A stretch of 64,000 nucleotides of DNA. Origin: a phage. Shown piece by piece: positions 2,254 through 31,889 of the stretch (position 1 is the first letter of the stretch; every line of letters starts with the position of its first letter). The notes beneath the pieces were generated by a model. That model had not been told where the DNA came from and did not search any database. It was given only the letters and a program-made list of their open reading frames with translations. The stretch is taken from assembly GCA_037431425.1 (NCBI GenBank), contig GCA_037431425.1_4129.2; one strand, given 5' to 3'. The position numbers and the translations under genes are program-made.

Positions 2254-2329
2254 TTATACCCTCCATTATAACCTTGTTAATATGTATATATTTAGTTTTA
2301 TTCTCCTGTTAACTAATAATTTATCAAAA

Positions 2330-3272: not shown

Positions 3273-3288
3273 TTTAATTTAATCTCCT

Positions 3289-5430: not shown

Positions 5431-5443
5431 TATGACATCCCCC

Positions 5444-10756: not shown

Positions 10757-12258
10757 TCTGTGTCCTTATGTATACGATAAGCTGTATTTGGTTTAACTGC
10801 GTCATGTAATGGAACTTTATTATCACTATTTACGAACTTAGTAAGTGCTAAATCTGCACCTTCCCACGGTTTTCTACCACCGTAATCAAAAATAACCCAT
10901 GAATTCTTAGTTGCATTGAATTCCCACAGTGTAACTGGTGTATAATCAGTACGGTAAAAGTAATCACCATCAACTGCATCAGTAGGGAACATGTTTCCTT
11001 CTGGAACTGTACCTCTTGCTGGTGGGATTTTAGGGCGATAATCCTGTTGTGCATCAATATTTCCATATACACAACTTGATGTGAATGGGTCATTGACGTA
11101 AGTTACTTTTGGTTCGCCCCATTTACCATCATTGTACTGAAAAATGTGTGGTTCTTTATAAAAAATACAAAAATCTTCAATATCTTTTGGTGGATTTTCA
11201 CTGGTCGTGTATTCAACATCACAATTTAACCATTTTTTAACACTTTTATCGTACTGGTATAGTGTATACCCAGTTACATCTACATCATTCTCTTTAAAGA
11301 AGAAATCACCATCCATAGGTTTCTTAGGAAAAACGGTTCCACGCTTGACTTCCAGTGAAATCCATGTATCATTATCGTATTCTTTAAGTATTGGGTATGT
11401 TTTTTTCAAAAAATACATACCACTTGCAGGTTCTTCGGGGAAATCATATCCATTAAGCATATACTTTGACAAATCAACAGTATCACGACGGTCATCATAC
11501 AAATGCTCGTTGGTATAATGAATATAAGGCACTTCATCATCAGCTTGCATAATGATACGATTCATAATATCCATTTCATTACTATAGTTACTGTTATCAG
11601 ATGTACCATCATCAGTGTTACCATTACCATTATTTGGATCATTTGGGTTATCAGGGTAATTGTTGTTTCCTAGTAAGTCGGAGTACTCAGGAGAGTCAGT
11701 CAATGGCTTTACTCGAAGTTTATAAATGTGATGTTGCCAAGTAACAGAGTAACCTTCTGCTGTACGAAACGCATCTTGGACCACATAGAAGCGATTCAGA
11801 CCAGAATCTTTACCAAGAACATCATAATCACGTAAATTTGGTAGTTCAATTACATCACCAGGCATGATTTTTCTACCCAATCGTTGCATCATGGTATTGT
11901 AGTGGATTGTAATGTCCATCGTATTGAAATTAAAGAACAAACCTGGAATTTTCAAGTCAGGTGTTGCTTCTTGAACTTGATAGACACAACTTAGTGTGAT
12001 TGCTTCAAGATTATAGTTTCTATTTGGGGTGTCTCCAAAAATTAAATCACCAATACTTGACACAACCGATCCAGAAGATGTATAATCACCGCCATATGAT
12101 AAGTCTTTGTTATCTGCAACTTGTTTTGGGCCGACATAAGCGTAAAGCCACATGTCAACACCACCAATGTTGTATTGTTCAGCAATGGCAGAGTCAATGA
12201 ACTTGTAATCATTGGTTCTACCTTTTTTCCACATTCTATATGTCATATTTGTCTCCAA
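10753..12258 (-). CDS. hypothetical protein in baseplate cluster
   Basis: 501-aa ORF; Asn/Asp/Tyr-rich; co-oriented with baseplate genes. Confidence 0.55.
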   Translation of the reverse strand: METNMTYRMWKKGRTNDYKFIDSAIAEQYNIGGVDMWLYAYVGPKQVADNKDLSYGGDYTSSGSVVSSIGDLIFGDTPNRNYNLEAITLSCVYQVQEATPDLKIPGLFFNFNTMDITIHYNTMMQRLGRKIMPGDVIELPNLRDYDVLGKDSGLNRFYVVQDAFRTAEGYSVTWQHHIYKLRVKPLTDSPEYSDLLGNNNYPDNPNDPNNGNGNTDDGTSDNSNYSNEMDIMNRIIMQADDEVPYIHYTNEHLYDDRRDTVDLSKYMLNGYDFPEEPASGMYFLKKTYPILKEYDNDTWISLEVKRGTVFPKKPMDGDFFFKENDVDVTGYTLYQYDKSVKKWLNCDVEYTTSENPPKDIEDFCIFYKEPHIFQYNDGKWGEPKVTYVNDPFTSSCVYGNIDAQQDYRPKIPPARGTVPEGNMFPTDAVDGDYFYRTDYTPVTLWEFNATKNSWVIFDYGGRKPWEGADLALTKFVNSDNKVPLHDAVKPNTAYRIHKDTE

Positions 12259-14643: not shown

Positions 14644-14651
14644 AAAACAAA

Positions 14652-14677
14652 AGGAGAGCATTTTGCTCTCCTTTTTA
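14652..14677. terminator. bidirectional intrinsic terminator
   Basis: GGAGAGC-atttt-GCTCTCC stem with A-run upstream and T-run downstream, between convergent ClpA-like (+) and giant (-) genes. Confidence 0.7.
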
Positions 14678-17600
14678 TTACTTAACTATTAATATTTTTT
14701 GAATATCATTACCACGAACTCGTAGACTGTTAGTATACACAGAAAGGTCTATTGTATAACTATTTTGAGTATAACGTTTAAACTTATCATAACCGCCCAA
14801 ATTAATTCCGTTGAAAGAATATGTAGTATCATGTTTGAAATCGTGTTCTGCACTGTACATTACTCCACGGAGTAAGTTGTTTGTATTTCTAACTTCAACT
14901 TTTTCATATCCAATCGATATAATGTCACTCTTGTTAGCAGCGGAGCCTGATAACACATTATTTCTAACATTATAATGGCTTACGGAAAGAGGTTGTGCTA
15001 CATAAGTTGTGTTTTCTTCACTAATGGTTGTTATGTTAGTGATGGTAGCGTCAGCCACATCAATATACATACTATCAACCATTGGATATTCATACACCCA
15101 CACACCTTCATTATTTTTTGTCGGTTTGATATCTTTCGCATCATATTCAATCACGTTAATTTCTAAACAATCCGGCATTTTAGTTCTTACTAATTCACTA
15201 AGAACACCTTCCCCTGTAATTGGTAGATTATAACCGTTGTCTATAGTAATACCATCATCATTAAATATTTCATTTGATACAACCCAAACATCAACATCAT
15301 CAGGTGTTACTCCGTCATTATACTTACCACCATTTAAAGTAGTATCATAAAAAACGTCATAATTAATCACATCAATGGTGTAATTTCTGTTTTGCTCATA
15401 TAATTTAATATCACCCTTGGTAAATTCTGGGTCAGCAAATGTTCTAACACGAACAATGTTCAATGCAAGATGTTGTACTGGCTGATTCAGTTGTCCAAGT
15501 GTGATGTTATCATATCGAAGAACATTACCAGAACTATCAACCAACTCAATTGTTTCTTTTCCTGTAGTTCTTACAGTGAATAGAATAGGAGTTGTATTAT
15601 GTTTGATATTAGACACACGTAATATGGTTTCCCATGTACGATTTTGATATCGAATAAAATCTTCACCATCCGGCGTGAAAATCATCACCTTATCACCATC
15701 AGATAAGTCACTGTCAACGATTTCAGCCTCAGTTAAGCTATTAATAGAACGTACACGATAGAAATATTTTTCTTCAAACGGTGATGCCGTTTTATTAATA
15801 TCATGTTCAATCTTAGCATATGAAGGAATACTAACAATTGCTTCTGTATGTTTATATGGGTTGATAATTGCCATACCCTCGGTTTTATATCTGCTATTAT
15901 TACGCAATTGCACTAGTGATTCAGTATCAAATCCATAACCATCAACAGTGAATCTAATATGCCCAACTGCACGACTAGCTGGATTTATTTCAGATATATC
16001 GATAATATAAGGATCAACTTCGTCATCTTTAACTTCCCATTTGATAGCTGAAGTTTGTGATTCTAATGCAAGGTTGTCAAATGCATTCATATCATTGAAG
16101 AACTTAGCTTCAGCAATACTATCAATTATATATTGATAATCCGAATACATAGGGTTATTTTGATCTTGTGGTAAATCATCTAGATTTATTTCAGCAAGTT
16201 TAATCATTTCACCATTAGTAATGAAATAATCTTCCATGAAATCATCAATACTTTTATCATCTGGTATACTTTGGTATTCACCATTGATATTTAAGTAGAC
16301 ATGTTTTCTTGGCATCATAGTAATAGCATAGATATCAATAGGTGTTTTTGAAAGAATTTCTTCTGCTTTTTCATACATATCAGTAGAGTCTTTATCAAAC
16401 AACCCTCTCATGGCTGCCAGTACATGGACCGCATCGGAATAGAAACGTGTATCACCACCAATTTCATCATAACGATAAACATATACACCGTATTCAACTT
16501 CAAGTTTCACTTTAATATCATGTTCAGATGCATCTGGATATTTTTCTGTAATAAAAGAAATATATTTTTCATATAATTCTTTACTTATTTCAAAATATCC
16601 ATAGTTATAATCATTACTTGAAGAAAAACCTAATGGTAGTCTAGTACTTGGGTTATCATTATAAACCAAACCACTAAATCCACAGCCAACCTCATCATGA
16701 ATCTTATCATCACTGATATCTTTATAAAGTTTCAAACGGTTTGCTAATGTATTGTACTGAACATAGTGTCGAAGGTCAGTAAACATTTCATTATGCGTTG
16801 ATTCGTTATAAATGCGTTCAAGTGTAGCAGTAAATTCATCAGTTGCTTCTAAATCATCAGCATGTTCTTTATACCACTGGTTTACACCATTTGCAGTTCC
16901 TAGTGTTACATCTAATTCTGGATAGTACGTTTGTAATAGATACGCATTAACCAAGTCAAATGATTGTTCATTATACACAGGGTAAGAATATATATAACGT
17001 TGTAATTCATAGGTATTAACAGAATCTTTTTCATTTGATTGATACTTATTATTAACACTAATCAACTCATTAATGTTTGCCAAATCTTTATTCGGTTTAC
17101 ATTGAATATTATCATAATGCATAATAATATCAATTTCTTGAAATCTTCTATTTGGTGCAATAAAATCACTAGGCAGAGAACCTACTTTCTCCCATTTTTT
17201 AGTGGTTTCATTATATTGAGCGTACTCATAATCCCAAATATCCTTTTCAGTTTTAACCCACGAACCATCAACAAAAATATACCCATTAGGATCTAAATCA
17301 TTACAAAGACCTTTGATTAAGTCATCATCAGACGTTTTTTGTTCTATCTGTGAACGGATTTTTGTACGATATGGTTTCACCTCTTCAAAGTACTCAACAA
17401 TTTGGTTAATCAAATTATCATTTGAATAGTTTTGTACCAAAGATTGTTCCAAACCAACAATATAGATATAGGATGTTTTAAATACCCAATCAACAACACC
17501 CTGTTCTACGTGTACATATTTGACCATATCAAAAACAATTTCACTTTGGTGTAAATCGAAAGAATTTTTTAGCAAAGCAAGTGCTTTTCTAATATTAATT

Positions 17601-20600
17601 TCACGATTACTAAGTGAACCGTCCTCATTATGAACATTATAATCTACATAAAACAAATCGTTAAGCTCAATAGTACTACGTTGTCGCCCAATAGCTTTCC
17701 AATAAATTGAATCACGTGATTGAGATTTGATATATAAAGTCCAAATGTTTTCACTATCTGTGACTCTAATTATATCACCAACTTGATAGTTTTTAGCATT
17801 TGCTTCTTCTAAACTTATCTCTTGGATGTAAGCAGTTTTGCTATCATACCCAACATCATACCAATCTGCATAAGACCAGTATTGAGTCATATCTAATGAT
17901 GTTCCGAGTGATTCAACATAATCCGATTGCTTAATCATTTTATGTTGTCCTTCACCTTTATTTTCTAAAGTTATAGTAACAACACTACCTGCATTAGCTG
18001 GACTATTCATTAACTGAATATATCCGTTTTCATCGAAGTGAATAAAATAAACAGCACTAGTTGATAATGGAGTCGGTAGATAACCGCTAGAACTTAAAAT
18101 AACAGCGTCATTTTCTTTAAATTTATCCTTTTCAACTGCAATTACAAGTTCATTATTATAAGTTAATACACGGAACGAAACCTCATTAGGGTTAACTTCT
18201 GTAGTTTTAACATTAAACACATCTTCCATAACAACACTATTAGTAGTTATGTTTTGTGATCTATAATAATTATTTGCACTTTCTACAAAGTTTCTACGTG
18301 CCTCTATTATATTCTGGAACCAAGTTTTATTAGAGCCTAAACCAGTGCCAACTTCTGGATATAATAAATCTACAACCTTACCTGACTTCGTAGTTTCTTG
18401 ACCAATTAGAGAGTTCCACATAGAGTCCCAAATTAGTGGGTTAAAATTGTAACTTTCACCCTCTTTACAAAGTTGATATTGATCATGTTTAACAACTTCT
18501 GTATTGTCCATATAGTAAGAAATAGTCAAAACACTAGTATCATCATTAACTTCAAACTGCATATTACTAAGAATAAAAGAGTTTTCATTAATTGGTGCGA
18601 ACCAAGGAATGTTCAACTGTGATGGATCTTTAATAATACGTGCAATGTCAGTACATGATTTTGTTCTGGTATGAATAGGTGGTACATAAATTGTATCACG
18701 TACCCAGAAATAGTATTTTGTTACATAACTGTCAGTGGAGCTATCATATTCCAAAAATGTACTATAATTATCTTCAAGTGCTGTTCCACTTGGAAGATAC
18801 ATATTATTATTTTTGTTTTTCTTAGCAACATCTTTACAGTACTTATCCCAGTTATATGGTTCTACTGGTGAACAAACCCATTCCAACACATCAATAGTAC
18901 TATGTGGCAACAAACGACCCCAGTTGTAACGTTTATATTCATTGGTTGCGTCAATATCAACATTTCCATCTGCATCATAAATGGCACGAGTATAATCCAA
19001 ATAAAAAGCGGTGCTAGTGTTCCACCATACTTGACCAACTTTTTCAGCACCCCACGCCTGAACCAATTCGCCATTACTATTATATTGAGCAGGGTCGATT
19101 GGTGAAGTATATGTTACGTTTTGCATTGCTGCACCAGGAATAACACCATTAATTGGGTCATAAACATTTAGATATAATGCAGTAATGTTTGTACGTTCAT
19201 CATATGTAGTTGGACGTTCAAACAAAGTACTTTGTGGTGCTTTAAAACTATATTTTTTATCAATATATGCTTGACGCTCTTCAGTACTCACAAAACGCGA
19301 AACATAACGATACAAACGAGGGCGTGTATCTGGGTCAGTAAATTCGATATTAATTGAAGTATCAAATGGAACCACCATAACTTTGGAATCATCCCCAGCA
19401 GTATAATATTGACTTTCTACTGTTAAAGTATCTGGCATAAAGTTAGTTTCGTCCACAAAATAATAGTAATCACCATCTTCAAGAGGGATATCATCAGATA
19501 GAGTTACTTTACAGAATTTCTCAGCGTAAACATCTGTGGTTTCGATTGGTGTAATAGAAACCATTTTAACATTAGTGTCAATTAATTCAAAAATGTTCCA
19601 TAACCCATTTCCATCTTTGAACATCCATACTGATTCAGGATTTTCACCTTTACCATTGATATACAACATACGGTCATTGAATGCAGTACTGAAATCTTTC
19701 GTAGTATAAGATACTTCATCTAATGTAACTGGACCAATATCAGGCAGTTGGATGTGTTCACTTCTACCACTACGCATTGGGAAAGAGAATTTACCATTTG
19801 GACGAGTAATCCATTGTGGGTCTTTTCCTTGTTCACCAAAGAATACAATATTGTTTCCATTGCCATTTGATGTTGCATTTTCATCAAAAGACATCATTTG
19901 TGGCTGCTGCTTAAATTGGTCATTAATCAATTTAAATTGAAGGTTTTTCTTTCCATCGATGTTACCATATGTACCAACTTTAAACGCCCATTCTTGTAAT
20001 GCTTTATATTCATCAGTATCATAGGATTTAGAAACACGAAGAACACGTTCTAAAACTTGGTTTGTACCTTTGTCATGAATAAATCCTTTATAGAAATCAA
20101 CACGACTTACATCACTACTAATCATACGTTGTAGATAATCACGAGATTGATAACCAATCAAATGGCTAGACAATTCTTGTAATTGTACATCGCTAACGGG
20201 ATGTTCATTGTCATAGTAATGTTGAAAATCTGTTACTAGAGTTTCAAATGATGGTATTGTACCAGATTCCAAAATAATAAAACCAGGTGCTTGTAATCTA
20301 CCAGTCCATGAACCAGTAATGTACCCATACATTTTAATTAGTTCCTGGATAGAACCATAAGTTGGTTGATAGATATAATCACCAAAAATAGTCTTATCAT
20401 CAAATATAACAGCATGTTCATATGAACACAAACTTAAACGGATTAATGCAATACGCTTATTAGAATCGGTTGTTCTAACAGTGAATATATTACCAATACG
20501 TGAAGTTTCGATTTCATATTGACGAATACCTTGGTTATTATCATCAAGCAATGACCACACACCACCATTATTTTGTGTAATAGACTGTACTGAACCAAAA

Positions 20601-23600
20601 TCCGAACCAAACTTAGCATTTGCAGCACTTGGTGTACAAGAGATAAATTCGCCAGTTACCAGAGGACTCTGACTCCATATCACAAAATCTTTAGCAATAG
20701 TGTGCCAATCTTGCTGAATACCATCTTGATTAACATCTTCGAAAATCCAGCCATGTTCTTTAAGATACTCACCATATCCACAAATAAAAGTGTATACTTC
20801 TTGATAACTATTGAAAATAGTCCCATATTCAATAGAAGCCTCAGACTTCCATTCATTATAATGAACAATATTACGGTTTTCCAATTTAAGAGTTACTTTT
20901 CTTCCATTTTTTACTGGAAGTTTATATTTAAATTTCGCACCAACCAAATCATATCCATCAATTTGATATGCACTACCATTCCATGTAATTTTGATGGCAC
21001 TCATCTGTTCATCGCGAATGTTATTCGAACGCACCAGACCAATCGTTTGGTTTTCTTGTGAAATAAGACCAAATGATTTAGCGTTGAATGTTAATTGATC
21101 TGCTTTAGTAAAGCCACCAATTTTATGTCCCACATTTACGTAAGACGAACGTACAACATCTCCATATTTTGTAGTAATATTTTTATTTTGATACATCAAA
21201 TAATCACTAACAAACATTTGATATCCAATTGTTCTTGTGTTATCTTCACCATGAACAGTTGTGTTTTTATCAAAATTCACACGATTGCGGGTATCCCCGT
21301 ACAGAAATTGTTCACCAGTGGTGATAATTTCTTTCAAATTGTCATTACGGGTATCCCAATAATAGTTGGCAAATTGTGCAGGTTTAGCTTTATACAAAAG
21401 TAACATTTGGTCATATGCAAACAATGTGGTGTTCATATACGTAAATTCCATATCACCCATGTCGCCATACGCCCAAGGTTCTGCTCGGTGAACTAAAGAT
21501 CCAGACACTAATCCTAAAACTTCAGGAGCAATATACTCAACCACACAAATATCTACACCGGATGATGTTTTATTTCCAGTTTTAGTAATTTTAAATGGTT
21601 GTACACCAAATCTTTTATATTTGTCATACTGACCACGGCGGTCGCCATATAAAATTGTCCCAGTACTACTATCGCCGATTGTATCATTTACATCCCAAAG
21701 TCCACTAGGAACCAAATCACCTTGTTCATCAGTTACAAGTGCCTCATATACATAAACTACATCACCATCACGTTCACCAACTTGGACAGCGGTTGGTTCA
21801 TACTCTTGGTTCCACCAAGTAGGACGTTGTGTAAACCCAAACATTTCCCATGGATGTGTAGCAGGGCGATATGTACCATATTGATCAGTATAGATTGCAC
21901 GCCATGAACCACGAGCAGGAATTTCAGTACTTTTACCATCAACAACATAATAGGTTCCAGTATAGTTCCATGTTCTCCAGTTATTAGGATCATAATCATG
22001 TGTGCTATTACTAATACCATTAGATGCAGTGAAGTTAATATAACCACGTAATAGAAGTGTTTGTTTTTCTTCTGCACTATATTCAGTTTTTGTAAAATAT
22101 GGCGTAGGGAAAAGATCATCACTATTCAATACAGGGACATAATCAACATCTTTGAATTTATTGTCAATACTATTGAAAATTCTATTTTCAAGTTCATATA
22201 CAACATCATCCATTTTATCAACACCATTGATAACACGGTATGCTTTAGAAATAATACCAGTATGGCTGATATTATAATAGCTAGGTTTACTACCAGCAGT
22301 TAGGAATGTTGCTTTCTCAGGAACGTATGCTTGTAGAATACCTAAAAACTGTGGAGTTGGTGGTATAAATGCACGAATAAGACCAGATGTACTACCCACA
22401 TTGTCATAATAGAATGGGAATGAACTATCACGACCCATATTAATAGTTGCCAAAATAGAATCAACGATGTTAGCTGCACTATTTTGTAAAAAGTTAGTTG
22501 GGTTTTCATTGTACATTCTAAGCATTTGTGTATTAAATTTATTAATGAATCTGAAATATTCAGATTGCATAAACATAGTTGCTTCAAATAAATCAATATC
22601 TTCATTTGCAGTATGAGCCATCAATGGGAGCATAGAAGCTTCATTTTGAATAATTTTAGTTCCTACTCCATTATTCACTAATCCCTTAGCTAAACGTTCT
22701 TCATAATCGTTGAAGTCATCAGCATAACCACTAGTGATATTCTGTTGAATAATATCCTGAAAATGAAGAGTATAGTCTCCTTGATTAATATATATAATAT
22801 TGGAGTTATATGGGTTATTTTGTAAGTTAATTGGAACTTCATATGCACCTAATTCTTTATCAGGTGTTACAGTACTGCTATAAGTTCTAATTTGAATAAC
22901 AGAATCATCATCCAATTCAACACTGTTATCGATTGTGATACTTTGCACTTGACCTTTTAATACATTCTTGGTATATTTGGAGATATTAACACCATCAACA
23001 ACAACTTCAATAATATCAGAGTCATTGTCTAAAACTTTTTGTGCCAATTCAAAAGTATGGTCATATTTTAAAACCTGAATACCATCACCACTAATTTGAT
23101 GCCAGTCCAAATATGTTTCACGTTCAGCTTTATAGTACTGATATGTTTTATCAACTTCGATGACATATGCATACATACCCTCGACTGGTTCTTTAAACAG
23201 TTCCATATCATAAACAGAACTAAAGACTCGATACATATCAGTACGTTTGACTTGAGGTGTCTGTTTTACAAATTGTTTAGAGAATTCTTTTGAACGCACC
23301 CAATCAGTTTGAAGATTCATTTTATTATTTTCATCAATGATGTTATAATAATACAAACCACCGATTTCAACTTCAACACCAAGATGGTCATATGTATAAC
23401 GTTGTGATTGTAAAAAGTTTTCATAAGTGTAATAGTTATAATCACCAAGTTCAATGTTATACCCATATACACTATCAGCCGCGTAGTTATAGTTTATTTT
23501 AAATCCAAATAATGGTGAACCTTTAAATGTACTGGATGGGTACGTGGTGCTGTTATCTAGTTTGATTCCATTACGATCATAAAGTTGGAATTGAGGAAAG

Positions 23601-24661
23601 ACGTTAACACTTGGCTTCGCCTGTGCACGAACCCATAATGTTCCATTCCAATACATAGAATTATTGCCGTACTCATTTCCTTTTGTGACCAAAACTACGT
23701 CACCATTTTGTGGTTCACCACTTGGACGGGACTCAGTTTCTTCATTTGGATCTAGTGCTAAGCCATAAACGCGTGTACCATCTTGCATTTTTTTAACATA
23801 CACTTTATAAATTCTATTGTTTTCACCATCATTACCAATACTGGTGAATAGAATACGCATACCATCTTGTGGAATAATACCATCAATGCGAATACCGCTA
23901 TTGACATCTTTTTGAATAATATCTTCAGGTTTGATACTATCAGAAAAAAGTTCAACTGTTCCACGGAATTTTGTACCGTAGTTAATTAGCTCGATATTTT
24001 TATTATATTCGATAATTGGTGCACGAGCACGAATAAAACGAGAATCTTGCATTAGCTCTTCAGTCAAGATAGAACCGTCTTCTAGTGTTTCACCTAAAGT
24101 ATACCAAAAGTTTTGCAAAGACCATGTATTACCATTAAGTGCTCCACGTTCCATTACAATGTAATCAGGTGTAATGATATTATAAGAGTTTTTGGTATCC
24201 CAAAGATACGAACTAAAATTGTTCATTTTATTTGGGTTAATTGCAGGAGTCCATGCATAAAACTTACCGTTAAATAAACGACTTTCATTATCGGTTAGTG
24301 CTCCGTAATGACTCATGTATCCAACAAGATCATCATAAAATTGAATTGAACGAATTGTTGAATCATCATTTTTAGAGACATAAGCAGTGGACAACTGATA
24401 TAGTTGACGTGCAACAGAACTTTCATGCAAGAAGATATTACCAGCGGCAGCCGGAGAACCCATGTCACCAATATAACCGTCAACCAATTCGTTTTCAGCC
24501 GGATTAAACCATTGTTGAATAACATCATCACTGACTTTTTGAATATCTTCTAAGCCTTGCATCCACTCAGGCAATCTTTTGATAAAAAGCTTTTTCTGTA
24601 CTGCTTCAGCCATCTGTGTAGGTTGAAACTTAAAATTATTAGTCATTTTTCTGGACTCCAT
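14678..24661 (-). CDS. giant virion protein (3327 aa), in the position of T4 baseplate gene 7
   Basis: Single uninterrupted 9984-nt ORF; immediately downstream of the gp6-like gene; preceded by ATAAATAA late-type motif; Asn/Tyr/Asp-rich, no catalytic motif recognised by eye. Confidence 0.75.
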   Translation of the reverse strand: MESRKMTNNFKFQPTQMAEAVQKKLFIKRLPEWMQGLEDIQKVSDDVIQQWFNPAENELVDGYIGDMGSPAAAGNIFLHESSVARQLYQLSTAYVSKNDDSTIRSIQFYDDLVGYMSHYGALTDNESRLFNGKFYAWTPAINPNKMNNFSSYLWDTKNSYNIITPDYIVMERGALNGNTWSLQNFWYTLGETLEDGSILTEELMQDSRFIRARAPIIEYNKNIELINYGTKFRGTVELFSDSIKPEDIIQKDVNSGIRIDGIIPQDGMRILFTSIGNDGENNRIYKVYVKKMQDGTRVYGLALDPNEETESRPSGEPQNGDVVLVTKGNEYGNNSMYWNGTLWVRAQAKPSVNVFPQFQLYDRNGIKLDNSTTYPSSTFKGSPLFGFKINYNYAADSVYGYNIELGDYNYYTYENFLQSQRYTYDHLGVEVEIGGLYYYNIIDENNKMNLQTDWVRSKEFSKQFVKQTPQVKRTDMYRVFSSVYDMELFKEPVEGMYAYVIEVDKTYQYYKAERETYLDWHQISGDGIQVLKYDHTFELAQKVLDNDSDIIEVVVDGVNISKYTKNVLKGQVQSITIDNSVELDDDSVIQIRTYSSTVTPDKELGAYEVPINLQNNPYNSNIIYINQGDYTLHFQDIIQQNITSGYADDFNDYEERLAKGLVNNGVGTKIIQNEASMLPLMAHTANEDIDLFEATMFMQSEYFRFINKFNTQMLRMYNENPTNFLQNSAANIVDSILATINMGRDSSFPFYYDNVGSTSGLIRAFIPPTPQFLGILQAYVPEKATFLTAGSKPSYYNISHTGIISKAYRVINGVDKMDDVVYELENRIFNSIDNKFKDVDYVPVLNSDDLFPTPYFTKTEYSAEEKQTLLLRGYINFTASNGISNSTHDYDPNNWRTWNYTGTYYVVDGKSTEIPARGSWRAIYTDQYGTYRPATHPWEMFGFTQRPTWWNQEYEPTAVQVGERDGDVVYVYEALVTDEQGDLVPSGLWDVNDTIGDSSTGTILYGDRRGQYDKYKRFGVQPFKITKTGNKTSSGVDICVVEYIAPEVLGLVSGSLVHRAEPWAYGDMGDMEFTYMNTTLFAYDQMLLLYKAKPAQFANYYWDTRNDNLKEIITTGEQFLYGDTRNRVNFDKNTTVHGEDNTRTIGYQMFVSDYLMYQNKNITTKYGDVVRSSYVNVGHKIGGFTKADQLTFNAKSFGLISQENQTIGLVRSNNIRDEQMSAIKITWNGSAYQIDGYDLVGAKFKYKLPVKNGRKVTLKLENRNIVHYNEWKSEASIEYGTIFNSYQEVYTFICGYGEYLKEHGWIFEDVNQDGIQQDWHTIAKDFVIWSQSPLVTGEFISCTPSAANAKFGSDFGSVQSITQNNGGVWSLLDDNNQGIRQYEIETSRIGNIFTVRTTDSNKRIALIRLSLCSYEHAVIFDDKTIFGDYIYQPTYGSIQELIKMYGYITGSWTGRLQAPGFIILESGTIPSFETLVTDFQHYYDNEHPVSDVQLQELSSHLIGYQSRDYLQRMISSDVSRVDFYKGFIHDKGTNQVLERVLRVSKSYDTDEYKALQEWAFKVGTYGNIDGKKNLQFKLINDQFKQQPQMMSFDENATSNGNGNNIVFFGEQGKDPQWITRPNGKFSFPMRSGRSEHIQLPDIGPVTLDEVSYTTKDFSTAFNDRMLYINGKGENPESVWMFKDGNGLWNIFELIDTNVKMVSITPIETTDVYAEKFCKVTLSDDIPLEDGDYYYFVDETNFMPDTLTVESQYYTAGDDSKVMVVPFDTSINIEFTDPDTRPRLYRYVSRFVSTEERQAYIDKKYSFKAPQSTLFERPTTYDERTNITALYLNVYDPINGVIPGAAMQNVTYTSPIDPAQYNSNGELVQAWGAEKVGQVWWNTSTAFYLDYTRAIYDADGNVDIDATNEYKRYNWGRLLPHSTIDVLEWVCSPVEPYNWDKYCKDVAKKNKNNNMYLPSGTALEDNYSTFLEYDSSTDSYVTKYYFWVRDTIYVPPIHTRTKSCTDIARIIKDPSQLNIPWFAPINENSFILSNMQFEVNDDTSVLTISYYMDNTEVVKHDQYQLCKEGESYNFNPLIWDSMWNSLIGQETTKSGKVVDLLYPEVGTGLGSNKTWFQNIIEARRNFVESANNYYRSQNITTNSVVMEDVFNVKTTEVNPNEVSFRVLTYNNELVIAVEKDKFKENDAVILSSSGYLPTPLSTSAVYFIHFDENGYIQLMNSPANAGSVVTITLENKGEGQHKMIKQSDYVESLGTSLDMTQYWSYADWYDVGYDSKTAYIQEISLEEANAKNYQVGDIIRVTDSENIWTLYIKSQSRDSIYWKAIGRQRSTIELNDLFYVDYNVHNEDGSLSNREINIRKALALLKNSFDLHQSEIVFDMVKYVHVEQGVVDWVFKTSYIYIVGLEQSLVQNYSNDNLINQIVEYFEEVKPYRTKIRSQIEQKTSDDDLIKGLCNDLDPNGYIFVDGSWVKTEKDIWDYEYAQYNETTKKWEKVGSLPSDFIAPNRRFQEIDIIMHYDNIQCKPNKDLANINELISVNNKYQSNEKDSVNTYELQRYIYSYPVYNEQSFDLVNAYLLQTYYPELDVTLGTANGVNQWYKEHADDLEATDEFTATLERIYNESTHNEMFTDLRHYVQYNTLANRLKLYKDISDDKIHDEVGCGFSGLVYNDNPSTRLPLGFSSSNDYNYGYFEISKELYEKYISFITEKYPDASEHDIKVKLEVEYGVYVYRYDEIGGDTRFYSDAVHVLAAMRGLFDKDSTDMYEKAEEILSKTPIDIYAITMMPRKHVYLNINGEYQSIPDDKSIDDFMEDYFITNGEMIKLAEINLDDLPQDQNNPMYSDYQYIIDSIAEAKFFNDMNAFDNLALESQTSAIKWEVKDDEVDPYIIDISEINPASRAVGHIRFTVDGYGFDTESLVQLRNNSRYKTEGMAIINPYKHTEAIVSIPSYAKIEHDINKTASPFEEKYFYRVRSINSLTEAEIVDSDLSDGDKVMIFTPDGEDFIRYQNRTWETILRVSNIKHNTTPILFTVRTTGKETIELVDSSGNVLRYDNITLGQLNQPVQHLALNIVRVRTFADPEFTKGDIKLYEQNRNYTIDVINYDVFYDTTLNGGKYNDGVTPDDVDVWVVSNEIFNDDGITIDNGYNLPITGEGVLSELVRTKMPDCLEINVIEYDAKDIKPTKNNEGVWVYEYPMVDSMYIDVADATITNITTISEENTTYVAQPLSVSHYNVRNNVLSGSAANKSDIISIGYEKVEVRNTNNLLRGVMYSAEHDFKHDTTYSFNGINLGGYDKFKRYTQNSYTIDLSVYTNSLRVRGNDIQKILIVK

Positions 24662-24695
24662 ATAATTCGTTCATTCATTTGATTTATTTATTAGA

Positions 24696-24720
24696 TAAAA
24701 AAGGCGTTCCGAAGAACGCC
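24696..24720 (-). terminator. intrinsic terminator between gp6-like and giant gene
   Basis: GGCGTTC-cgaa-GAACGCC stem followed on the minus strand by a U-run. Confidence 0.6.
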
Positions 24721-24727
24721 GATATTA

Positions 24728-27700
24728 TTAAGAACCGATATTAATATTACTTTTAGCTAATGAGTTAACTATTTGAACATTTTCAACCGATGCAGTACTC
24801 AAGAATATTTGGTCCGAGCGTGAAGGTATTTCAAACAAAGAACCAAATTTGGAATTCGGATTTTGTGCAACTATAACAATTGTACTAATATGTCTTCCTA
24901 GTTGGGAATGTATATAAGTACATAAATCGGTATAATAGAAACTTTCACCAAAATCCCAGTTATCAACATTAAAATATTCATTCGTTAATGCTATCACATT
25001 TTGACGAATTTCATCATCACTCATCGTGCTATTTGGTAGCTTAACAACTTTAAAATCAGCTTTATAATCTTCCGCAGCACTGTTCCCAAATAATGGTAGA
25101 TACTCTGCACTATGCCAGATAATACTATCACTGATGACTATTTTTTGTTCGACATCTTTGAACATATTTTTCAATTCAACTGATGTTGGAGGCTTCGGCA
25201 TACTTCCAACTGCATTATTTTTTAACCACACATCAACTTCAGTTTTGTATGAGTTTGTTAGTACATACATATCAATTAGGTTTGTTCTACTAGGATCAAT
25301 ACGGTTATCATCAGGTGCATAATGTTTCCAATGGAAATCTATACTGGTACGAGCATTCGTCTTAACCGTATATTGCGATGTAACATCTTTATAACCATAA
25401 TAATCCAACTTCTGATTCTCATCAGCATTAGTACCCATGTTATTAATTGAACGATAAAACGCAAGTTCAGGACTAATAGTTCCGGTATCATCGGAATATG
25501 TCAAATTACTGATTAATTGCCCCAAACGATCATTGTTATTACCAACAGTTTGTTCAATAAAATAATATTTACCATCATATTTAAAACACACTAAGAATCC
25601 AGAGCCTTTACTATACAATCCACTCAATGTGTTAGAACGAATTGCATTATTTCGTACAAATTCGGTTCTTTTATATGTATTAGGTTCAGCTAATGCTTGT
25701 TCCATCGTATAAGACCATGACGTATCCAGTAGTGAGAATGTATCATTTGGTAATGACAGTACTGAAATTGTAAAATCATTATTTTCCTTGAATATCAATA
25801 TACCACCGTATTTTAATGCATCAGAACCTGACCATTCTGGAACAATATCTTTAAATTGATTCGGTTCCAACGGTATACCATTACTATCTACTTTTCTAGA
25901 GGTGACAATAATACGAGAACCATCCAGATATCCATTTTCTTGCTGTATTGTGTCATAAATTTGAAAATCTATATTACTTGTTAGACCTGAGTTACTTGTG
26001 CTTGTTGTGTTGGATGATAAAATTTCAATTTTATCACTTTGAACTGTACCAGAACTAATATCAGTTATTTTTTTGGATGAAACGAAATAGAATTTGACTT
26101 TATTACCACCAACAAATATATATTCAATACCATTTGCATCAAATTCCCAGGTTTCTGCTGTATATTTAACGTTTATTACAACTAAAACTTCGTGACCATT
26201 GTAAACAATAGTATCATCATTTGTACTAATTTCTACTGGAACCCATGAAGTTGTTTCTTTATCATGAACAATAACAAAATCAGTTTTTTTATCAAGCATT
26301 GCAGAAATAGACTGAACCTCAACCGAATCAAATCTTGTTCTATATGGTAATATATAATCAATTGCTTGCATTTTACTAGAAACTGGCGTACTTAATACAT
26401 AAAACCCATTATCTAAAACACTAATAACACTTGCCCATATAGTTGTTGTAGAGTTGGAGAACTTAATTAAAGTGCCAACCTGATACGAATTATATACTGT
26501 CCCAGATGATCCCATGATTCTTCCATATGTATTGGTAGTATAATTCGAATTATAAACAGGTGTCCATGATTGTTGAAGTTCAATTCCAATAGTATTTGGT
26601 GGATATGCTTGATAACGTTGTATCACAGCATTTTCACCAATTAGTGGTTGAATATTGTCAATTACGATACTGGCATTTGTTTTTGTAGTTGGTAGTAATA
26701 AAGATTTATTAAATTTAGTATTTTCTTTATATAATGCACCATCATCACTAAAAACATCAGTATTTTGATATTTTCCAGTAGGGTCATTAATATCAATGAA
26801 TCGAGACTGTCCACTATAAATTCTATTAATAGCTTTTGACTTAAGTACAGTGTTACCTAAACTGAGTGGAGCAATATTATAATCTTCACCATTAACAAAA
26901 CGGTTTTGTGTGTAATACATTTGTGGTGCTCGTGCTTTAATTTGCTCAATAGTCTCAGCACTTTGTGCACGATCTGATTCGTATTGTAATGAAAAGCGTA
27001 CATCTAGTGTGCTTGATTCATAACTGGATTGTGTTTTAGTACGATACGTATATTTTACACTTTTATTTTGAATTTCTGACGTTTTGATGTTATATGTTTT
27101 ACCATTACTAACACGATACCACACACGGAATGTACCACGCGGAACAACACCACTTCTGGAATCTGGATATTTAATTGTTATTTGATCTTTATCACGAGTT
27201 GTAACTGCAAAAATTGTTTTAAGCTGGCGATTGACCGTGTTGTATGCAATACTTTCCATGGATGGAACTTTTGTCCATTTGGTACGAACAATACCATCTT
27301 CATTGATTTCTTGTACCCAAACATCAGTTTCATTTATGTTATCAACGTTTACCTCTTGTATTCTATTTTCTTCACGAATATTATATTGGTAATCTTGATA
27401 TGTCAATGTTCCTTGGATAAAATACACAAAAAAACCAGTATTTGGTGAACTGAATCCATTACCATCATTTTGGTACACAATATATTTTTGCTCTTGTGGT
27501 TCTGGATGTCTCTCTTCAACACCAACAGATGTAATGTCAGGGTTAACCACTTCAAATGTCATTGATTCACCATTAACAGTTGCAACAAATGGTATACTTG
27601 GAGCACTCATAGGAATAGTATTCATTCGATAAAGCTGACGTGACACCCCATTGACATCAATACGTTTAACTGGATTACCGAACTGATTAGTACTAACAAA

Positions 27701-28189
27701 TGAACTATTCATAACAAGAATAAAGTTTTCATACCAATTCGCATCCATTGGGTCGTTCCAACGAATAATTTTATCTTTTAATGATTCATTAAAACTATTA
27801 CGAACATCTTGGTTTGTTTTAATTTCTGTTAATTTTGCTACTGCACGACCTGGATATGAGCGACGTGGTGTATACGAAATCATTTTGGCTAATTTTAGAA
27901 CCGATGCACGGCGTGTAGCAGTATCTAAGAAGTTTTCACGCGTGTTCAAATCCATACGAAATGCCAAGTTCTGACCCAGCATTGAAATGGTATCAAGAAT
28001 AAAAATAAACTGATCGTTTTCAATCCAGTCATTAAATGAATCAGGATACGTTTGACGCAAATAATCAATCATACTCTGGCGAATAGTATCAAAGTCAAAT
28101 GCCGTGAGATTGATTTTATAAAAACTTTCATATACTTGTGTCCAATCTTCACCACTATATAAATTTGATTGCCTTTTTTGTTGTGACAT
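24728..28189 (-). CDS. 6: baseplate wedge protein, gp6-like (baseplate J family), enlarged to 1153 aa
   Basis: N-terminal region LTAFDFDTIRQSMIDYL...LDTISMLGQNLAF...TATRRASVLKLAKMISYTP follows the pattern of T4 gp6 as recalled; position downstream of gp25-like gene. Confidence 0.7.
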   Translation of the reverse strand: MSQQKRQSNLYSGEDWTQVYESFYKINLTAFDFDTIRQSMIDYLRQTYPDSFNDWIENDQFIFILDTISMLGQNLAFRMDLNTRENFLDTATRRASVLKLAKMISYTPRRSYPGRAVAKLTEIKTNQDVRNSFNESLKDKIIRWNDPMDANWYENFILVMNSSFVSTNQFGNPVKRIDVNGVSRQLYRMNTIPMSAPSIPFVATVNGESMTFEVVNPDITSVGVEERHPEPQEQKYIVYQNDGNGFSSPNTGFFVYFIQGTLTYQDYQYNIREENRIQEVNVDNINETDVWVQEINEDGIVRTKWTKVPSMESIAYNTVNRQLKTIFAVTTRDKDQITIKYPDSRSGVVPRGTFRVWYRVSNGKTYNIKTSEIQNKSVKYTYRTKTQSSYESSTLDVRFSLQYESDRAQSAETIEQIKARAPQMYYTQNRFVNGEDYNIAPLSLGNTVLKSKAINRIYSGQSRFIDINDPTGKYQNTDVFSDDGALYKENTKFNKSLLLPTTKTNASIVIDNIQPLIGENAVIQRYQAYPPNTIGIELQQSWTPVYNSNYTTNTYGRIMGSSGTVYNSYQVGTLIKFSNSTTTIWASVISVLDNGFYVLSTPVSSKMQAIDYILPYRTRFDSVEVQSISAMLDKKTDFVIVHDKETTSWVPVEISTNDDTIVYNGHEVLVVINVKYTAETWEFDANGIEYIFVGGNKVKFYFVSSKKITDISSGTVQSDKIEILSSNTTSTSNSGLTSNIDFQIYDTIQQENGYLDGSRIIVTSRKVDSNGIPLEPNQFKDIVPEWSGSDALKYGGILIFKENNDFTISVLSLPNDTFSLLDTSWSYTMEQALAEPNTYKRTEFVRNNAIRSNTLSGLYSKGSGFLVCFKYDGKYYFIEQTVGNNNDRLGQLISNLTYSDDTGTISPELAFYRSINNMGTNADENQKLDYYGYKDVTSQYTVKTNARTSIDFHWKHYAPDDNRIDPSRTNLIDMYVLTNSYKTEVDVWLKNNAVGSMPKPPTSVELKNMFKDVEQKIVISDSIIWHSAEYLPLFGNSAAEDYKADFKVVKLPNSTMSDDEIRQNVIALTNEYFNVDNWDFGESFYYTDLCTYIHSQLGRHISTIVIVAQNPNSKFGSLFEIPSRSDQIFLSTASVENVQIVNSLAKSNINIGS

Positions 28190-28254
28190 AATTTATTCCT
28201 TTAAATCAGTAAAGTACTAGTTCAGTACTGGGAATTATATAGAAATATTTATTC

Positions 28255-28286
28255 AAAAAGAAAAGCACCCCGAAGAGTGCTTTTTT
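28255..28286. terminator. bidirectional stem-loop terminator
   Basis: AAAGCAC-cccgaaga-GTGCTTT stem with flanking A-run and T-run. Confidence 0.55.
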
Positions 28287-28291
28287 AATAT

Positions 28292-28687
28292 CTACAAAGA
28301 CGATACTGAATATGTTGCCATTCTATTATTACTTCTTGCATCAAATACAATAGAAAGTTCCTCTACAGTATTCAATACTACATAATGCAATACTATGTTC
28401 ATTTGATATCCATATTCTATCCTTGAAATTTGTATTTTTTTAAGATTCAAACGTGGATCTAAAGAAATAATCCTTCTGGCATCTGCTTCCAAAAGGTTCA
28501 TAGTATTATAACCTTCCAATTCAAACAACAAATCCCATGCAATAAAACCATAGTCTGCATCAAATGCCCTTTCGCCTTTTTTTGTATTGAAATGGTTCAT
28601 TAAATCCTGACGAACCAGTTCAGTATCGTACAATGTTTCCGTTCTACCCACAACTGGTGTGGAGAAACCTTTAAAAACAACTGCCAT
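28292..28687 (-). CDS. 25: baseplate wedge protein, gp25-like (GPW/lysozyme-like fold)
   Basis: KKGERAFDADYGFIAWDLLFE...LDPRL matches the gp25/GPW pattern G-R-FDP-FG...LFE...EPR; 131 aa. Confidence 0.75.
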   Translation of the reverse strand: MAVVFKGFSTPVVGRTETLYDTELVRQDLMNHFNTKKGERAFDADYGFIAWDLLFELEGYNTMNLLEADARRIISLDPRLNLKKIQISRIEYGYQMNIVLHYVVLNTVEELSIVFDARSNNRMATYSVSSL

Positions 28688-29225: not shown

Positions 29226-31889
29226 TTATTGACATGCCTCTAAACGACGAGCCATTAATTCAGCACGGCGTGTTGTTTGACGATACCAAGCCGAATTTCG
29301 TATTTGAGCAGCAGCTTGTTTATAGTTTCCTTTGGCTAATTCAGACAACATGGTCTTAAATTTAAGGACACCCCCTTTACCCATCTGGAATACCATTTGA
29401 CATAGAACTTGTTGTGCCATGTAAGGAGTTTTCATGTTATATGATGCATAAATTGCCTTAGCATCATAAATTGCTTTACTACTGTCTCTAACAAGCATAT
29501 CATTGGCTTCTTGTTCAGTTATACCTGACGAAAAGTTCTCACCGCTAACAATTAAGTGACCGTATCCAATAGTAGGGAATCCACGACTATCTAAGTAACG
29601 CCAGAATTTACCATTACGGTAATATCCTTTTGCTTGTTGATATTGTATTGTACCCTCATATTCTTTTAATTCCGAAATAAACTGAGCATCACCTGGGACG
29701 ATTTTCCAATCTATTGCTGTTTTATCTACGTTACCAACATTATATGTAGGTTGTTCAACTGGCGTTGATGATACACTTCTACGTTGTGTTCTTCTTTTGC
29801 GTGGTACATGTCGTGAACCACGCTGAGAATAACCAGTCCCAATTGTTTTAATTTTAGTAGTTACTACTAATTCATCACTATCTACTGACGGTTGCACAAC
29901 TGCTTGCGGTGACGATTGATTAGTTGCTTTTCCAGCAATCAAGGTTTTATTAGCTGCATCTGCTCCAATTCCAGTTTGTGATGCATAGAACAATCCCGGA
30001 TCAACTGAACCACTAAACCCAAGTACATTTGCAGACGTTACACGTATTTCAAATTGAATAACACCTTTAGCTTTACCTATAACTTGTCCTTTTTGAACAA
30101 CATCTTTATTCAATAAATCAGTTTGAATATTATAAAATATAGATTTATATCCAGATTTGTGTTGTATTAAAATACCACCATTGGTGATTGAAACAACACC
30201 ACCATCTGGTGCAACAACATCACCTTTGCATTGTATTTCCCATCCAGAACGATCTGCTTTTCCACCGTTTTGTGTTGGAATACCTTTCCCCCAGTAACCA
30301 TATTGACGAATTGTCCCACTACATGGCATATACATATGTAAACCTTCATATGTGATACTATATCCAGTCATCCCAGCATCAGATACCATCAAATCTTGTG
30401 TTTGTACTTGTTCTGTTTCAGGGGTATAGTTAATAAACTGTATAGCTTCAGTTTCTTGAGCTTCTGGAATTTCTGGTGTAACATCATTAGCAGGTTGTGG
30501 CTGTACTGGTGATTCACTTGAAATCTTCCCACCGCCTTGTCTCGGTGGTTCAACAGTACTACCATGTTTTTCTGCATTAACCCAAGCAGAAATGTCATGA
30601 ATGTGTTCATTTAGACCCGTAGATGGTGTTTTAAAGTTAGGAGCAGTAAATTCAGCAGTTCCGCTGTTTCCTCCACTGTTAACAGTCAATGTTTGACCAC
30701 CACCACTAATTATTGCTGATGATGAACCAATTAAATTTGCGGAAGTAGAAGCAGATATAGATGCATTTGAACCTGCGGTAATATCAGTACTACTACCACT
30801 TTGCATACGCAATGATGCAGCAGTAACTAATCGGAGATCTGCACCAGAATTAACAACAACCTGACCACCAACTTTTGCATCAAGTGCACCAATTAAATCC
30901 AACTTAGTATTTGCACCAACACGTGCATTGAAATCTTGACCAGATTCAATATTATATGAACGACCAGCAATCATATTAATATCCTGACCAGCACGAATAT
31001 TGATATTCTTATCACAATGCATATCAATATCACCTTCACCTGTAAATTTTATGCGTGCTGTTCCGTCACGGTTAATTAACAGAACGTCGCCTGTTGCTTC
31101 TGACAGTAATAGCTGTGCACCACTGCGAGTTTTTATAACAACTCCTTCATTTTTACGGGAACCAACACGTGTATCGTTTACTGGGTTATTAAATTGTGTA
31201 TCCTGATAACCATCTGGATCTTGATCCCATGTAGGTGCGGTTAATTCCTCTTCAGTATATCCATCATCGATAATAAAACTATTTCCACGTGGTGACGACA
31301 TGCCATATACAGTACTGGTTGTCTGGCGGGTGCTACTGCGATTAGCAAGACCTGCTTCTTCATCATATAAAAGGTTTTGTTTTTTCAAACCAGCAATGAT
31401 TGGAACGTTTGCATACTTATCTTGCATGTCCGTTGTGATTGTGTTACGATCATAATCAGTAACAGGGATAGGCATATCCGTTCCGCTATAACTACTAACT
31501 TCAGTTGCCATGCCTGGAACCATAGTATTCATGCGATGGTCATATACACAGCCAATCCAATATGCCTGAAATGTACGTGCCTGTGCGAAAATCACAATAA
31601 CAGTGCACCCAACATCAGGCGGTACAGCCCAGAATCCATAGCCTTTGGGATATTGACCATATGCATCGGCACTTGGAATACCTGGTGTTTTGCCAGCAAA
31701 TGGTGACATATATGATGCTTCAATCCATGATTCTTTGGAATTTTTATCACTTTGTGAACCTTGTATCCAAACTTTCAATTTTCCTGATTTAGTTGGATCT
31801 CTATTATCCATAACCGTTGCTAACTGTGGGTAAGATGGGTCAAAACGACCCAACTGTTGTTGTGCATACTTTTTACTTGTATCTGCCAT
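29226..31889 (-). CDS. 5: baseplate central spike, gp5-like: N-terminal OB-fold, beta-helical needle, degenerate M23-like domain, C-terminal GH24 lysozyme domain
   Basis: N-terminal VMDNRDPTKSGKLKVWIQG resembles the gp5 OB-fold motif; Ser/Gly/Thr repeat region; GDVVAPDGGVVSI...GGILIQHKSGYKSIFYN...GQVIGKAKG M23-like pattern lacking catalytic His; C-terminal 150 aa closely similar to the adjacent free lysozyme. Confidence 0.8.
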   Translation of the reverse strand: MADTSKKYAQQQLGRFDPSYPQLATVMDNRDPTKSGKLKVWIQGSQSDKNSKESWIEASYMSPFAGKTPGIPSADAYGQYPKGYGFWAVPPDVGCTVIVIFAQARTFQAYWIGCVYDHRMNTMVPGMATEVSSYSGTDMPIPVTDYDRNTITTDMQDKYANVPIIAGLKKQNLLYDEEAGLANRSSTRQTTSTVYGMSSPRGNSFIIDDGYTEEELTAPTWDQDPDGYQDTQFNNPVNDTRVGSRKNEGVVIKTRSGAQLLLSEATGDVLLINRDGTARIKFTGEGDIDMHCDKNINIRAGQDINMIAGRSYNIESGQDFNARVGANTKLDLIGALDAKVGGQVVVNSGADLRLVTAASLRMQSGSSTDITAGSNASISASTSANLIGSSSAIISGGGQTLTVNSGGNSGTAEFTAPNFKTPSTGLNEHIHDISAWVNAEKHGSTVEPPRQGGGKISSESPVQPQPANDVTPEIPEAQETEAIQFINYTPETEQVQTQDLMVSDAGMTGYSITYEGLHMYMPCSGTIRQYGYWGKGIPTQNGGKADRSGWEIQCKGDVVAPDGGVVSITNGGILIQHKSGYKSIFYNIQTDLLNKDVVQKGQVIGKAKGVIQFEIRVTSANVLGFSGSVDPGLFYASQTGIGADAANKTLIAGKATNQSSPQAVVQPSVDSDELVVTTKIKTIGTGYSQRGSRHVPRKRRTQRRSVSSTPVEQPTYNVGNVDKTAIDWKIVPGDAQFISELKEYEGTIQYQQAKGYYRNGKFWRYLDSRGFPTIGYGHLIVSGENFSSGITEQEANDMLVRDSSKAIYDAKAIYASYNMKTPYMAQQVLCQMVFQMGKGGVLKFKTMLSELAKGNYKQAAAQIRNSAWYRQTTRRAELMARRLEACQ

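Follow-up and report, generated by a model that had tools for sequence, protein, structure and literature searches.

A 3,322-residue virion protein in the gene-7 position of a Rak2-like jumbo phage: a possible giant scaffold of the baseplate

Introduction

All contractile injection systems solved to date share a baseplate wedge core of two gp6 subunits and one gp7 subunit, (gp6)2-gp7. Rak2-like jumbo phages have recognisable homologues of gp25, gp6, gp53 and gp5 and no recognisable gp7; the largest gene of the genome stands in its place. The stretch of DNA analysed here (contig GCA_037431425.1_4129.2, 64,000 nucleotides, hereafter the window), assigned from its sequence to Asteriusvirus, the Rak2-like jumbo phages of Escherichia coli, contains such a giant gene directly after the gene for a gp6-like wedge protein. 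An earlier note on the same DNA proposed that its product is an expanded gp7 with added adhesin, glycan-binding or enzymatic modules. The locus raises the question of whether the giant protein is gp7 and, if not, what it contributes to the baseplate.

We lean towards the view that the giant protein is a 382-kDa baseplate structural protein and the lineage-specific occupant of the slot of the third wedge component, most likely in the architectural role of gp7, gpI and TssG, and that it probably forms an outer baseplate scaffold. This view is supported by synteny, virion peptides of orthologues, conserved segments that are modelled with low confidence, a low ratio of nonsynonymous to synonymous substitution (dN/dS), the lack of repeats, a large family found in jumbo phages only, and the lack of a gp7 signal elsewhere. 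The gene and its association with the virion were already known, with the function uncharacterised. New here are the argument from synteny, the extent of the family, the map of core and variable regions, two candidate interface segments, and the finding that repeats, domains and known folds are absent.

Results

Position in the baseplate module

In transcription order, the locus encodes a 252-residue virion protein, a gp53-like protein (labelled as annotated in 121Q), a 749-residue virion protein, a gp5-like hub/lysozyme, a lysozyme, a gp25-like protein, the gp6-like protein, the giant protein and a convergent ClpA/B-like ATPase. The features on which the argument rests are as follows.

14678..24661, minus strand: giant open reading frame (ORF) in its longest form, 3327 codons plus stop, no interruption
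14678..24646, minus strand: likely coding sequence of the giant gene, 3,322 residues plus stop; ATG at 24644-24646, GGAG at 24656-24659
24728..28189, minus strand: gp6-like wedge protein of 1,153 residues, 5' neighbour of the giant gene; its N-terminal helical domain aligns with T4 gp6 25-107
28292..28687, minus strand: gp25-like sheath initiator or wedge protein, from its PHROG match and the 121Q annotation
29226..31889, minus strand: gp5-like hub or spike protein with M23 and lysozyme domains
31900-34149, minus strand: 749-residue virion protein, immediately 5' of the gp5-like hub

The giant gene lies directly 3' of the gp6-like gene within the baseplate module, which is the gene-7 position assigned to it in the earlier note, and the gp6-like protein is indeed enlarged (1,153 residues versus 660 in T4). 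The order gp25, gp6-like, giant is found in the window, 121Q, phAPEC6, RaK2 and two metagenomic contigs (L005 and L006). The two contigs keep the longer order of hub, gp25, gp6-like (Pfam DUF8360) and giant, with giant proteins that are only 26–30% identical, and in both of these distant relatives the giant start codon abuts the gp6-like stop codon. The PA5oct paper likewise describes a very large gp128 that adjoins the wedge protein gp129. Every relative examined has the giant locus within its baseplate module. Where such systems have been solved, the third wedge subunit is encoded by the gene that follows the gp6 orthologue (6-7 in T4, J-I-H in P2 and 16-17 in XM1).

Orthologues, selection and presence in virions

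The giant gene is 99.8% identical in DNA sequence to that of Escherichia phage ph0011, and ~87% identical to those of 121Q, PBECO4, phAPEC6 and other Asteriusvirus genomes of ~350 kb. The protein shares ~91–93% identity with the 121Q group and 57–69% with RaK2 and CBB. Its orthologues, including 121Q gp582, phAPEC6 gp245 and RaK2 ORF070, are annotated as "hypothetical" or "virion structural protein". The match to PHROG 10938 is full-length and collinear (E=0, profile positions 1–3324), and the proteins of this family (these three, CBB_236 and PA5oct gp128) have lengths of 3,310–3,361 residues, occupy the same locus and show no material difference from the giant protein.

The frame is unbroken in the window, and the ORF is intact and collinear, with at least 80% of the gene covered, in 35 of the 41 matching phage records; the splitting of the ORF by a frameshift or sequencing error, a possibility raised in the earlier note, is therefore not what is seen. 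Three Salmonella phage records (OR699183.1, OR699181.1 and OR699182.1, for SD-1_S14, SD-2_S15 and SD-6_S16; 310–321 kb) annotate the orthologous region as 3–4 hypothetical proteins, and in two of the three the region aligns as three pieces. These fragments probably reflect frameshifts or assembly errors, or possibly a real disruption.

Two orthologues have been detected in purified virions by mass spectrometry: phAPEC6 gp245 (381.88 kDa) with 17 unique peptides in CsCl-purified particles (PMC7247149), and CBB_236 with 21 peptides (PMC5259590). The orthologues speak against the absence from virions that the earlier note had also considered. Compared with 121Q, dN/dS is 0.04–0.08 over the first 2,800 codons and 0.12–0.14 over the last 500. 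Since orthologue peptides are found in virions and dN/dS is low, the whole frame is coding and constrained; purifying selection acts on what is a real gene. The CBB paper notes the gene as the largest ORF, which serves to orient Rak2-like genomes (PMC5259590). Keyword searches of papers on RaK2, CBB, phAPEC6, PA5oct, Atu_ph07, phiKp24 and Alcyoneusvirus adsorption complexes returned, within the text so covered, no report of a function, location or fold.

The open reading frame, its start and flanking signals

The single unbroken ORF described earlier is present at 14678..24661, and it lies on the minus strand, which had not been stated. At ~34% G+C, stop codons are expected at ~0.07 per random codon and 3,327 stop-free codons would arise with a chance of ~e^-250 (both estimates), so the ORF is not a chance open frame. 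The start region reads ATGGAGTCCAGAAAAATG, with GGAG (24656-24659) 9 nucleotides 5' of the second ATG (24646). The annotated coding sequences of the 121Q and phAPEC6 orthologues and the PHROG 10938 profile begin at this ATG, and the PHROG 10938 match to the ORF begins at ORF residue 6. The GGAG spacing and these gene models favour the second ATG over the first (24661) as the most likely true start, which would give a protein of 3,322 residues and ~382 kDa (a mass taken from the phAPEC6 orthologue). Residues are numbered from the second ATG throughout.

The late-type promoter motif and the terminators on both sides that had been claimed for the gene are both present as motifs and hairpins:

24685-24692, minus strand: T4-late-promoter-like motif AATAAATA, 46 nucleotides 5' of the start ATG; motif match only
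24703-24720, or 24697..24720 with T6, minus strand: terminator-like hairpin GGCGTTC-TTCG-GAACGCC with a stem of 7 base pairs, followed by T6, between the gp6-like and giant genes
14649-14675, both strands: bidirectional terminator-like hairpin with a stem of 12 base pairs, common to the giant gene and the convergent ClpA-like gene

The promoter motif matches T4 TATAAATA at 7/8 positions, which is a motif match only; WATAAATA also occurs 5' of other genes in the window, mostly ones annotated as structural. The composition had been described as rich in Asn, Tyr and Asp. This is clear for Tyr (7.2% versus 4.3% in the other window proteins), and the enrichment is only mild for Asn (7.7 versus 6.8%) and Asp (7.9 versus 6.4%).

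Family breadth and regions of the protein

A word-indexed search returned 187 relatives of the giant protein, with lengths of 2,780–5,408 residues among the matches listed. An exhaustive hidden Markov model (HMM) search with a profile of the N-terminal 475 residues found 1,783 clusters (50% identity) at E<=1e-3 and 890 at E<=1e-30; among the matches listed, the best are mostly 3,000–5,800 residues long and carry the domain nearly always at the extreme N-terminus. Among cultured phages, tblastn matched 93 records, and all of those listed are jumbo myophages of 286–490 kb. They include Asteriusvirus, RaK2/K64-1, GAP32, CBB, relatives from Erwinia, Serratia, Yersinia and Xanthomonas, PA5oct-like phages, Atu_ph07, Phosso, RsoM2USA, CM1 and XacN1. 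The comparison of length across relatives that had been suggested gives a very stable length in the close clade (3,310–3,361 residues), against the wider range above.

Distant matches mapped on the query define a family-wide core of unique sequence at residues ~1–2450, with insertion hot spots after residue ~150 and chiefly at ~1590–1810. The C-terminal ~870 residues are confined to the closer clade. No internal repeat was found above 30% probability by self-BLAST and segment-by-segment hhalign of the giant protein. Its size is therefore not the product of repeat expansion, unlike that of typical giant adhesins. The regions are as follows.

Residues 1-85, 24392..24646, minus strand: conserved N-terminal segment with invariant P26, G57, G60, E75, R80 and Q84; predicted partly helical, pLDDT 29–60 as a monomer
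Residues 86-600, 22847..24391, minus strand: predicted beta-rich domains, pLDDT mostly 80–95 to residue ~450, then lower
Residues 600-1409, 20420..22849, minus strand: conserved mixed alpha/beta core domains, confident model, no PDB fold match
Residues 1410-1550, 19997..20419, minus strand: among the most conserved modelled stretches; five predicted helices, pLDDT 30–48
Residues 1551-1810, 19217..19996, minus strand: variable, the main insertion hot spot; distant inserts of up to ~1,600 residues, some FG-GAP or immunoglobulin-like
Residues 1811-2450, 17297..19216, minus strand: conserved Trp-rich blocks (WWDTST, YEWVxSPV, YYFWV); end of the family-wide core
Residues 2451-3322, 14681..17296, minus strand: clade-specific C-terminal region, dN/dS up to 0.14, homologous among close Rak2-like phages

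Here pLDDT is the predicted local distance difference test score of the models described below. The first segment sits at the extreme N-terminus of family members. Distant relatives carry an insert of 80–320 residues after residue ~150, and residues 470–600 are variable. The invariant residues of the 1410–1550 segment are W1447, G1449, A1453, G1455, G1498, G1521, K1526, G1527 and R1537. Evolution is about threefold faster in the C-terminal part, which is nevertheless 30–50% identical among relatives from different host genera; phages of E. coli, Klebsiella, Pectobacterium and other hosts have it. Its region-by-region comparison used one named homologue, the protein of Pectobacterium phage CBB.

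A Pfam scan of the E. coli phage giant protein gave no domain, catalytic or carbohydrate-binding, in keeping with the earlier failure to recognise a catalytic motif. Weak-to-moderate matches to CBM5/12, FG-GAP or TIG were seen only inside insertions of some distant relatives. In the homologue P0083, CBM5/12-like and FG-GAP matches at residues 1668–1698 and 2352–2393 map to query residues ~1467 and ~1782–1811, and the CBM5/12 site falls in the low-confidence stretch preceding the first predicted helix of residues 1410–1550. In the homologue P0094, the corresponding matches are at residues 1470–1501 and 2990–3024. These data lend no support to extra adhesin, glycan-binding or enzymatic modules in the giant protein: there are no Pfam domains and no repeats, 2,450 residues form a unique conserved core, and the C-terminus, homologous across phage genera, is common to phages of different hosts and under purifying selection (dN/dS <=0.14). 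Nor does the protein show what would mark a receptor-binding adhesin, fibre or spike, namely repeated or modular domains for binding or catalysis and an exchangeable C-terminus specific to the host. That relatives infecting different genera have this C-terminal part in common argues against a primary role in receptor binding; the region would suit a platform on which the exchangeable sets of fibres and depolymerases of these phages dock.

Structure models and candidate interfaces

Two AlphaFold2 models were built from 22-sequence alignments. The model of residues 1–1195 has a mean pLDDT of 80.4 and a predicted template modelling (pTM) score of 0.69, and that of residues 1190–2389 a mean pLDDT of 75.3 and a pTM of 0.46. 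Both contain many confident, mostly beta-rich domains and some helical bundles. The AlphaFold check proposed earlier, run on residues 1–2389, matched no solved fold: Foldseek against the PDB gave nothing significant (best E 0.42), and the full-length family profile had no match to any PDB sequence at E<=10. At the resolution of whole-model searches, the modelled core of 2,400 residues is without a counterpart among solved structures, the baseplate proteins in the searched libraries included.

Residues 1–85 and 1410–1550 combine family-wide conservation with low pLDDT amid confidently folded domains. Conserved stretches that fail to fold by themselves are expected at obligate contacts, and we infer that these two segments are candidate inter-subunit interfaces.

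Comparison with gp7, gpI and gp6

The conserved helical domain of T4 gp7, part of the core bundle, spans residues 643–689 by Pfam (Gp7_helical, PF21428) and is followed by domains V and VI; a homology to gp7 need therefore not be N-terminal. None of the listed Pfam families for Gp7 and Gp6 appeared in the whole giant protein, in two of its middle segments or in 17 N-terminal family members (E<=10), and the segments scanned had no Pfam match at all even at this threshold. Profiles of the giant family were aligned with hhalign to T4 gp7, Straboviridae gp7, T4 gp6, the gp6-like family and P2 gpI, and all probabilities were <1%; these profile tests have low power for a helical motif of ~50 residues. 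The giant family alignments compared with T4 gp7 by BLAST and hhalign reached a probability of 0.4%. The Straboviridae gp7 profile had seven members, taken from tblastn against phage genomes and from six loci; a search with the C-terminal part of T4 gp7 had given only five close fragments. Neither candidate interface showed similarity to gp6-type N-terminal domains, though the positive control worked (gp6-like family versus the T4 gp6 helical domain, P=1e-4). No similarity of fold to the solved wedge proteins was found in the comparisons with gp7, gpI and gp6. With every sequence and fold comparison to these three negative, nothing shows the giant protein to be the expanded gp7 that had been proposed.

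Two apparent resemblances were rejected. An alignment of giant residues 1451–1557 with T4 gp7 residues 640–750 was lost with deeper profiles, and the unrelated 749-residue family matches the same T4 segment, for which reason the alignment is regarded as noise. The N-terminal pattern LLP...QTE...LFQP is similar by eye to LLP...PLE...LWNP of P2 gpI; it has no statistical support and the spacing differs. Residues 640–760 of T4 gp7 (L004:7061-10156) draw the top insignificant hhalign alignments from both the giant and the 749-residue families, and further match other "baseplate wedge" PHROGs at their N-termini, the 4,179-position profile phrog_2885 among them. This behaviour calls for caution over weak HHpred matches to gp7.

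No gp7 signal came from any module protein examined. The 749-residue family and the other scanned tail-module ORFs match no gp7-type PHROG or PDB chain, the check for the 501-, 131- and 162-residue ORFs being against PHROGs. The 749-residue family (17-member profile) showed no similarity to Pfam, PDB sequences or gp7; its best PDB E-value, 0.69, is at chance level.

Neighbouring genes

A ClpA/ClpB-like double AAA+ ATPase of 762 residues (12355-14643, plus strand) is convergent with the giant gene, directly downstream of it, and shares its terminator. The pairing recurs in 121Q (gp581), phAPEC6 (gp246c) and RaK2 (ORF069) and is absent from L005 and L006, the two distant contigs. It is tempting to imagine the ATPase as a chaperone that folds or assembles the 382-kDa protein. 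In 121Q, the gp25-like and gp6-like genes are separated by gp584 (10704-11468), the gene of an HNH endonuclease described as "associated with group I intron"; only a spacer of ~100 nucleotides is found at this place in the window (28189-28292) and in phAPEC6. PHROGs 10938, 11190 and 11591, which hold the giant protein and two virion proteins encoded nearby, are filed under "head and packaging"; this label looks unreliable, as all three lie inside the baseplate/tail module.

Elsewhere in the window, the ORF at 46322-47170 (plus strand, 282 residues) is far more acidic than its neighbours (15.2% Asp, 0.7% Tyr, 2.1% Asn) and, among ORFs of the size of head genes, may encode a scaffold or internal protein. 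The ORF at 3289-5625 (minus strand) has a TTG start and overlaps the upstream ORF at 5444-6571 (minus strand) by 180 nucleotides. Since its PHROG match (colanic-acid-degrading/tailspike-like) begins only with residue 158, translation probably starts downstream of the TTG.

Discussion

Weighing the readings

We infer the baseplate location of the giant protein, its stoichiometry, its contact with the gp6-like protein and its anchoring of fibres. One copy per wedge (six per virion) would dock on a dimer of the enlarged gp6-like protein through residues 1–85 and/or 1410–1550. The other ~3,000 residues, in unique and mostly beta-rich domains, would form the periphery of the baseplate in one chain, in place of the many separate proteins of T4 or phiKZ. 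This periphery would give anchoring sites to the fibre network, and the faster-evolving C-terminal ~870 residues would face outward.

Several points weigh against this assignment. The sole suggestive alignment to gp7 is also produced by the unrelated 749-residue family. Mass spectrometry of orthologues proves presence in the virion and says nothing on location. The models stop at residue 2389, with the C-terminal ~930 residues outside them. By electron microscopy, the baseplates of these phages appear modest, at a width of ~35–36 nm. The hub-proximal 749-residue protein, whose fold is likewise unmatched, might in principle itself be the third wedge subunit.

In the strongest alternative, in our estimate an unlikely one, the giant protein is a peripheral accessory of the baseplate or fibre network (an arm, platform or secondary host-binding protein) outside the (gp6)2-X heterotrimer, and the third subunit is another protein such as that of 749 or 252 residues. 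Such a role would agree with the lack of a detectable gp7-like helical domain or fold in the giant protein, with the peripheries of phiKZ and phage 812, which use extra proteins distinct from the wedge trimer, and with the CBM5/12, FG-GAP and TIG insertions of distant homologues, which suggest surface exposure; the 749-residue neighbour is equally uncharacterised. However, it is the giant gene and not the 749-residue gene that directly follows the gp6-like gene, with abutting start and stop codons in two distant relatives. The 749-residue gene is directly upstream of that of the gp5-like protein with its oligonucleotide/oligosaccharide-binding (OB) fold, where a gp27-type hub is expected from the domain order of VgrG, and by position its product is the best candidate for that hub. 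The C-terminus, conserved across hosts under purifying selection, is also unlike that of a receptor-binding protein.

We give a slightly lower chance still to the giant protein being a true and extremely diverged homologue of gp7 or gpI, that is, an expanded gp7 whose small helix-turn-helix core is beyond detection. The gene position is that expected, and the gp7 family already ranges from 242 to 1,032 residues with only ~50 conserved helical residues. The candidate interfaces are helical and modelled with low confidence, a pattern that an obligate hetero-bundle would produce, and the resemblance of LLP..QTE..LFQP to LLP..PLE..LWNP at the N-terminus of P2 gpI can be seen by eye. Against this, all statistical tests were negative while the control of gp6-like versus T4 gp6 worked, and the spacing from LLP to xxP is 23 residues in the giant protein versus 30 in P2 gpI.

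A non-baseplate virion protein (internal or ejected, an enzyme like the N4 virion RNA polymerase, an ejection conduit or a tape-measure-like ruler) would be compatible with the mass spectrometry, which shows presence in the virion only, and with the PHROGs category "head and packaging", and is very improbable, given the locus within the baseplate module in all relatives examined, the lack of a polymerase or other enzyme domain and of any PDB match to the full-length profile, the T4-type late sigma factor of these phages, implying that they transcribe with the host RNA polymerase, and models that are beta-rich and multidomain rather than an extended tape-measure helix (3,322 residues would make a helix of an estimated ~500 nm, versus a tail of ~120–130 nm). 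N4-like phages do have giant virion proteins of ~3,500 residues, which counts in its favour.

Relation to known systems

The third-slot scaffold that we favour shares features with T4 gp7, XM1 gp17, P2 gpI, pyocin PA0619 and TssG of the type VI secretion system: the gene directly follows one of gp6/gpJ type, the product is a virion structural protein, and size and peripheral domains are lineage-specific. The giant protein has 3.2 times the length of T4 gp7 and ~14 times that of XM1 gp17. No Gp7_helical, Gp7_5th or Gp7_6th domain is detectable in it and it has no fold match; it is at most a putative member of this group. It would share with the peripheral baseplates of T4 (gp7–gp12), phiKZ (gp26/27/127/130/139/157) and phage 812 (arms) the presumed task of an outer, fibre-carrying platform around the wedge ring. 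Those platforms consist of many separate and often oligomeric proteins, whereas the giant protein would supply most of the mass as one non-repetitive chain. It differs from giant adhesins and from repeat-rich fibre or decoration proteins by the absence of tandem repeats and of carbohydrate-binding or enzymatic signals, and by its strongly conserved length and sequence.

Tentatively, one may go further and propose that in this clade of jumbo myophages a non-repetitive chain of 3,300–5,800 residues, with folds absent from the PDB, both replaces the multi-protein periphery and completes the wedge through an interface with no relation to the canonical helix-turn-helix of gp7; we think this possible but would not count on it. 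If true, few conserved structural proteins of tailed phages would be larger, and the problem of the third wedge subunit would have been solved a second time, independently.

The giant protein is less a surprise than a good target for electron cryo-microscopy; the available map of the phAPEC6 tail is at ~25 Å. As Asteriusvirus, RaK2, phiK64-1 and PA5oct are candidates for therapy, knowledge of the baseplate scaffold matters for the engineering of fibre sets. If the giant protein completes the wedge, it would be a conserved genomic marker of the jumbo-phage clade in metagenomes, where the N-terminal profile alone finds ~1,800 clusters. It would also show how one chain can supply most of a very complex baseplate that bears fibres, and how far the universal wedge module can diverge.

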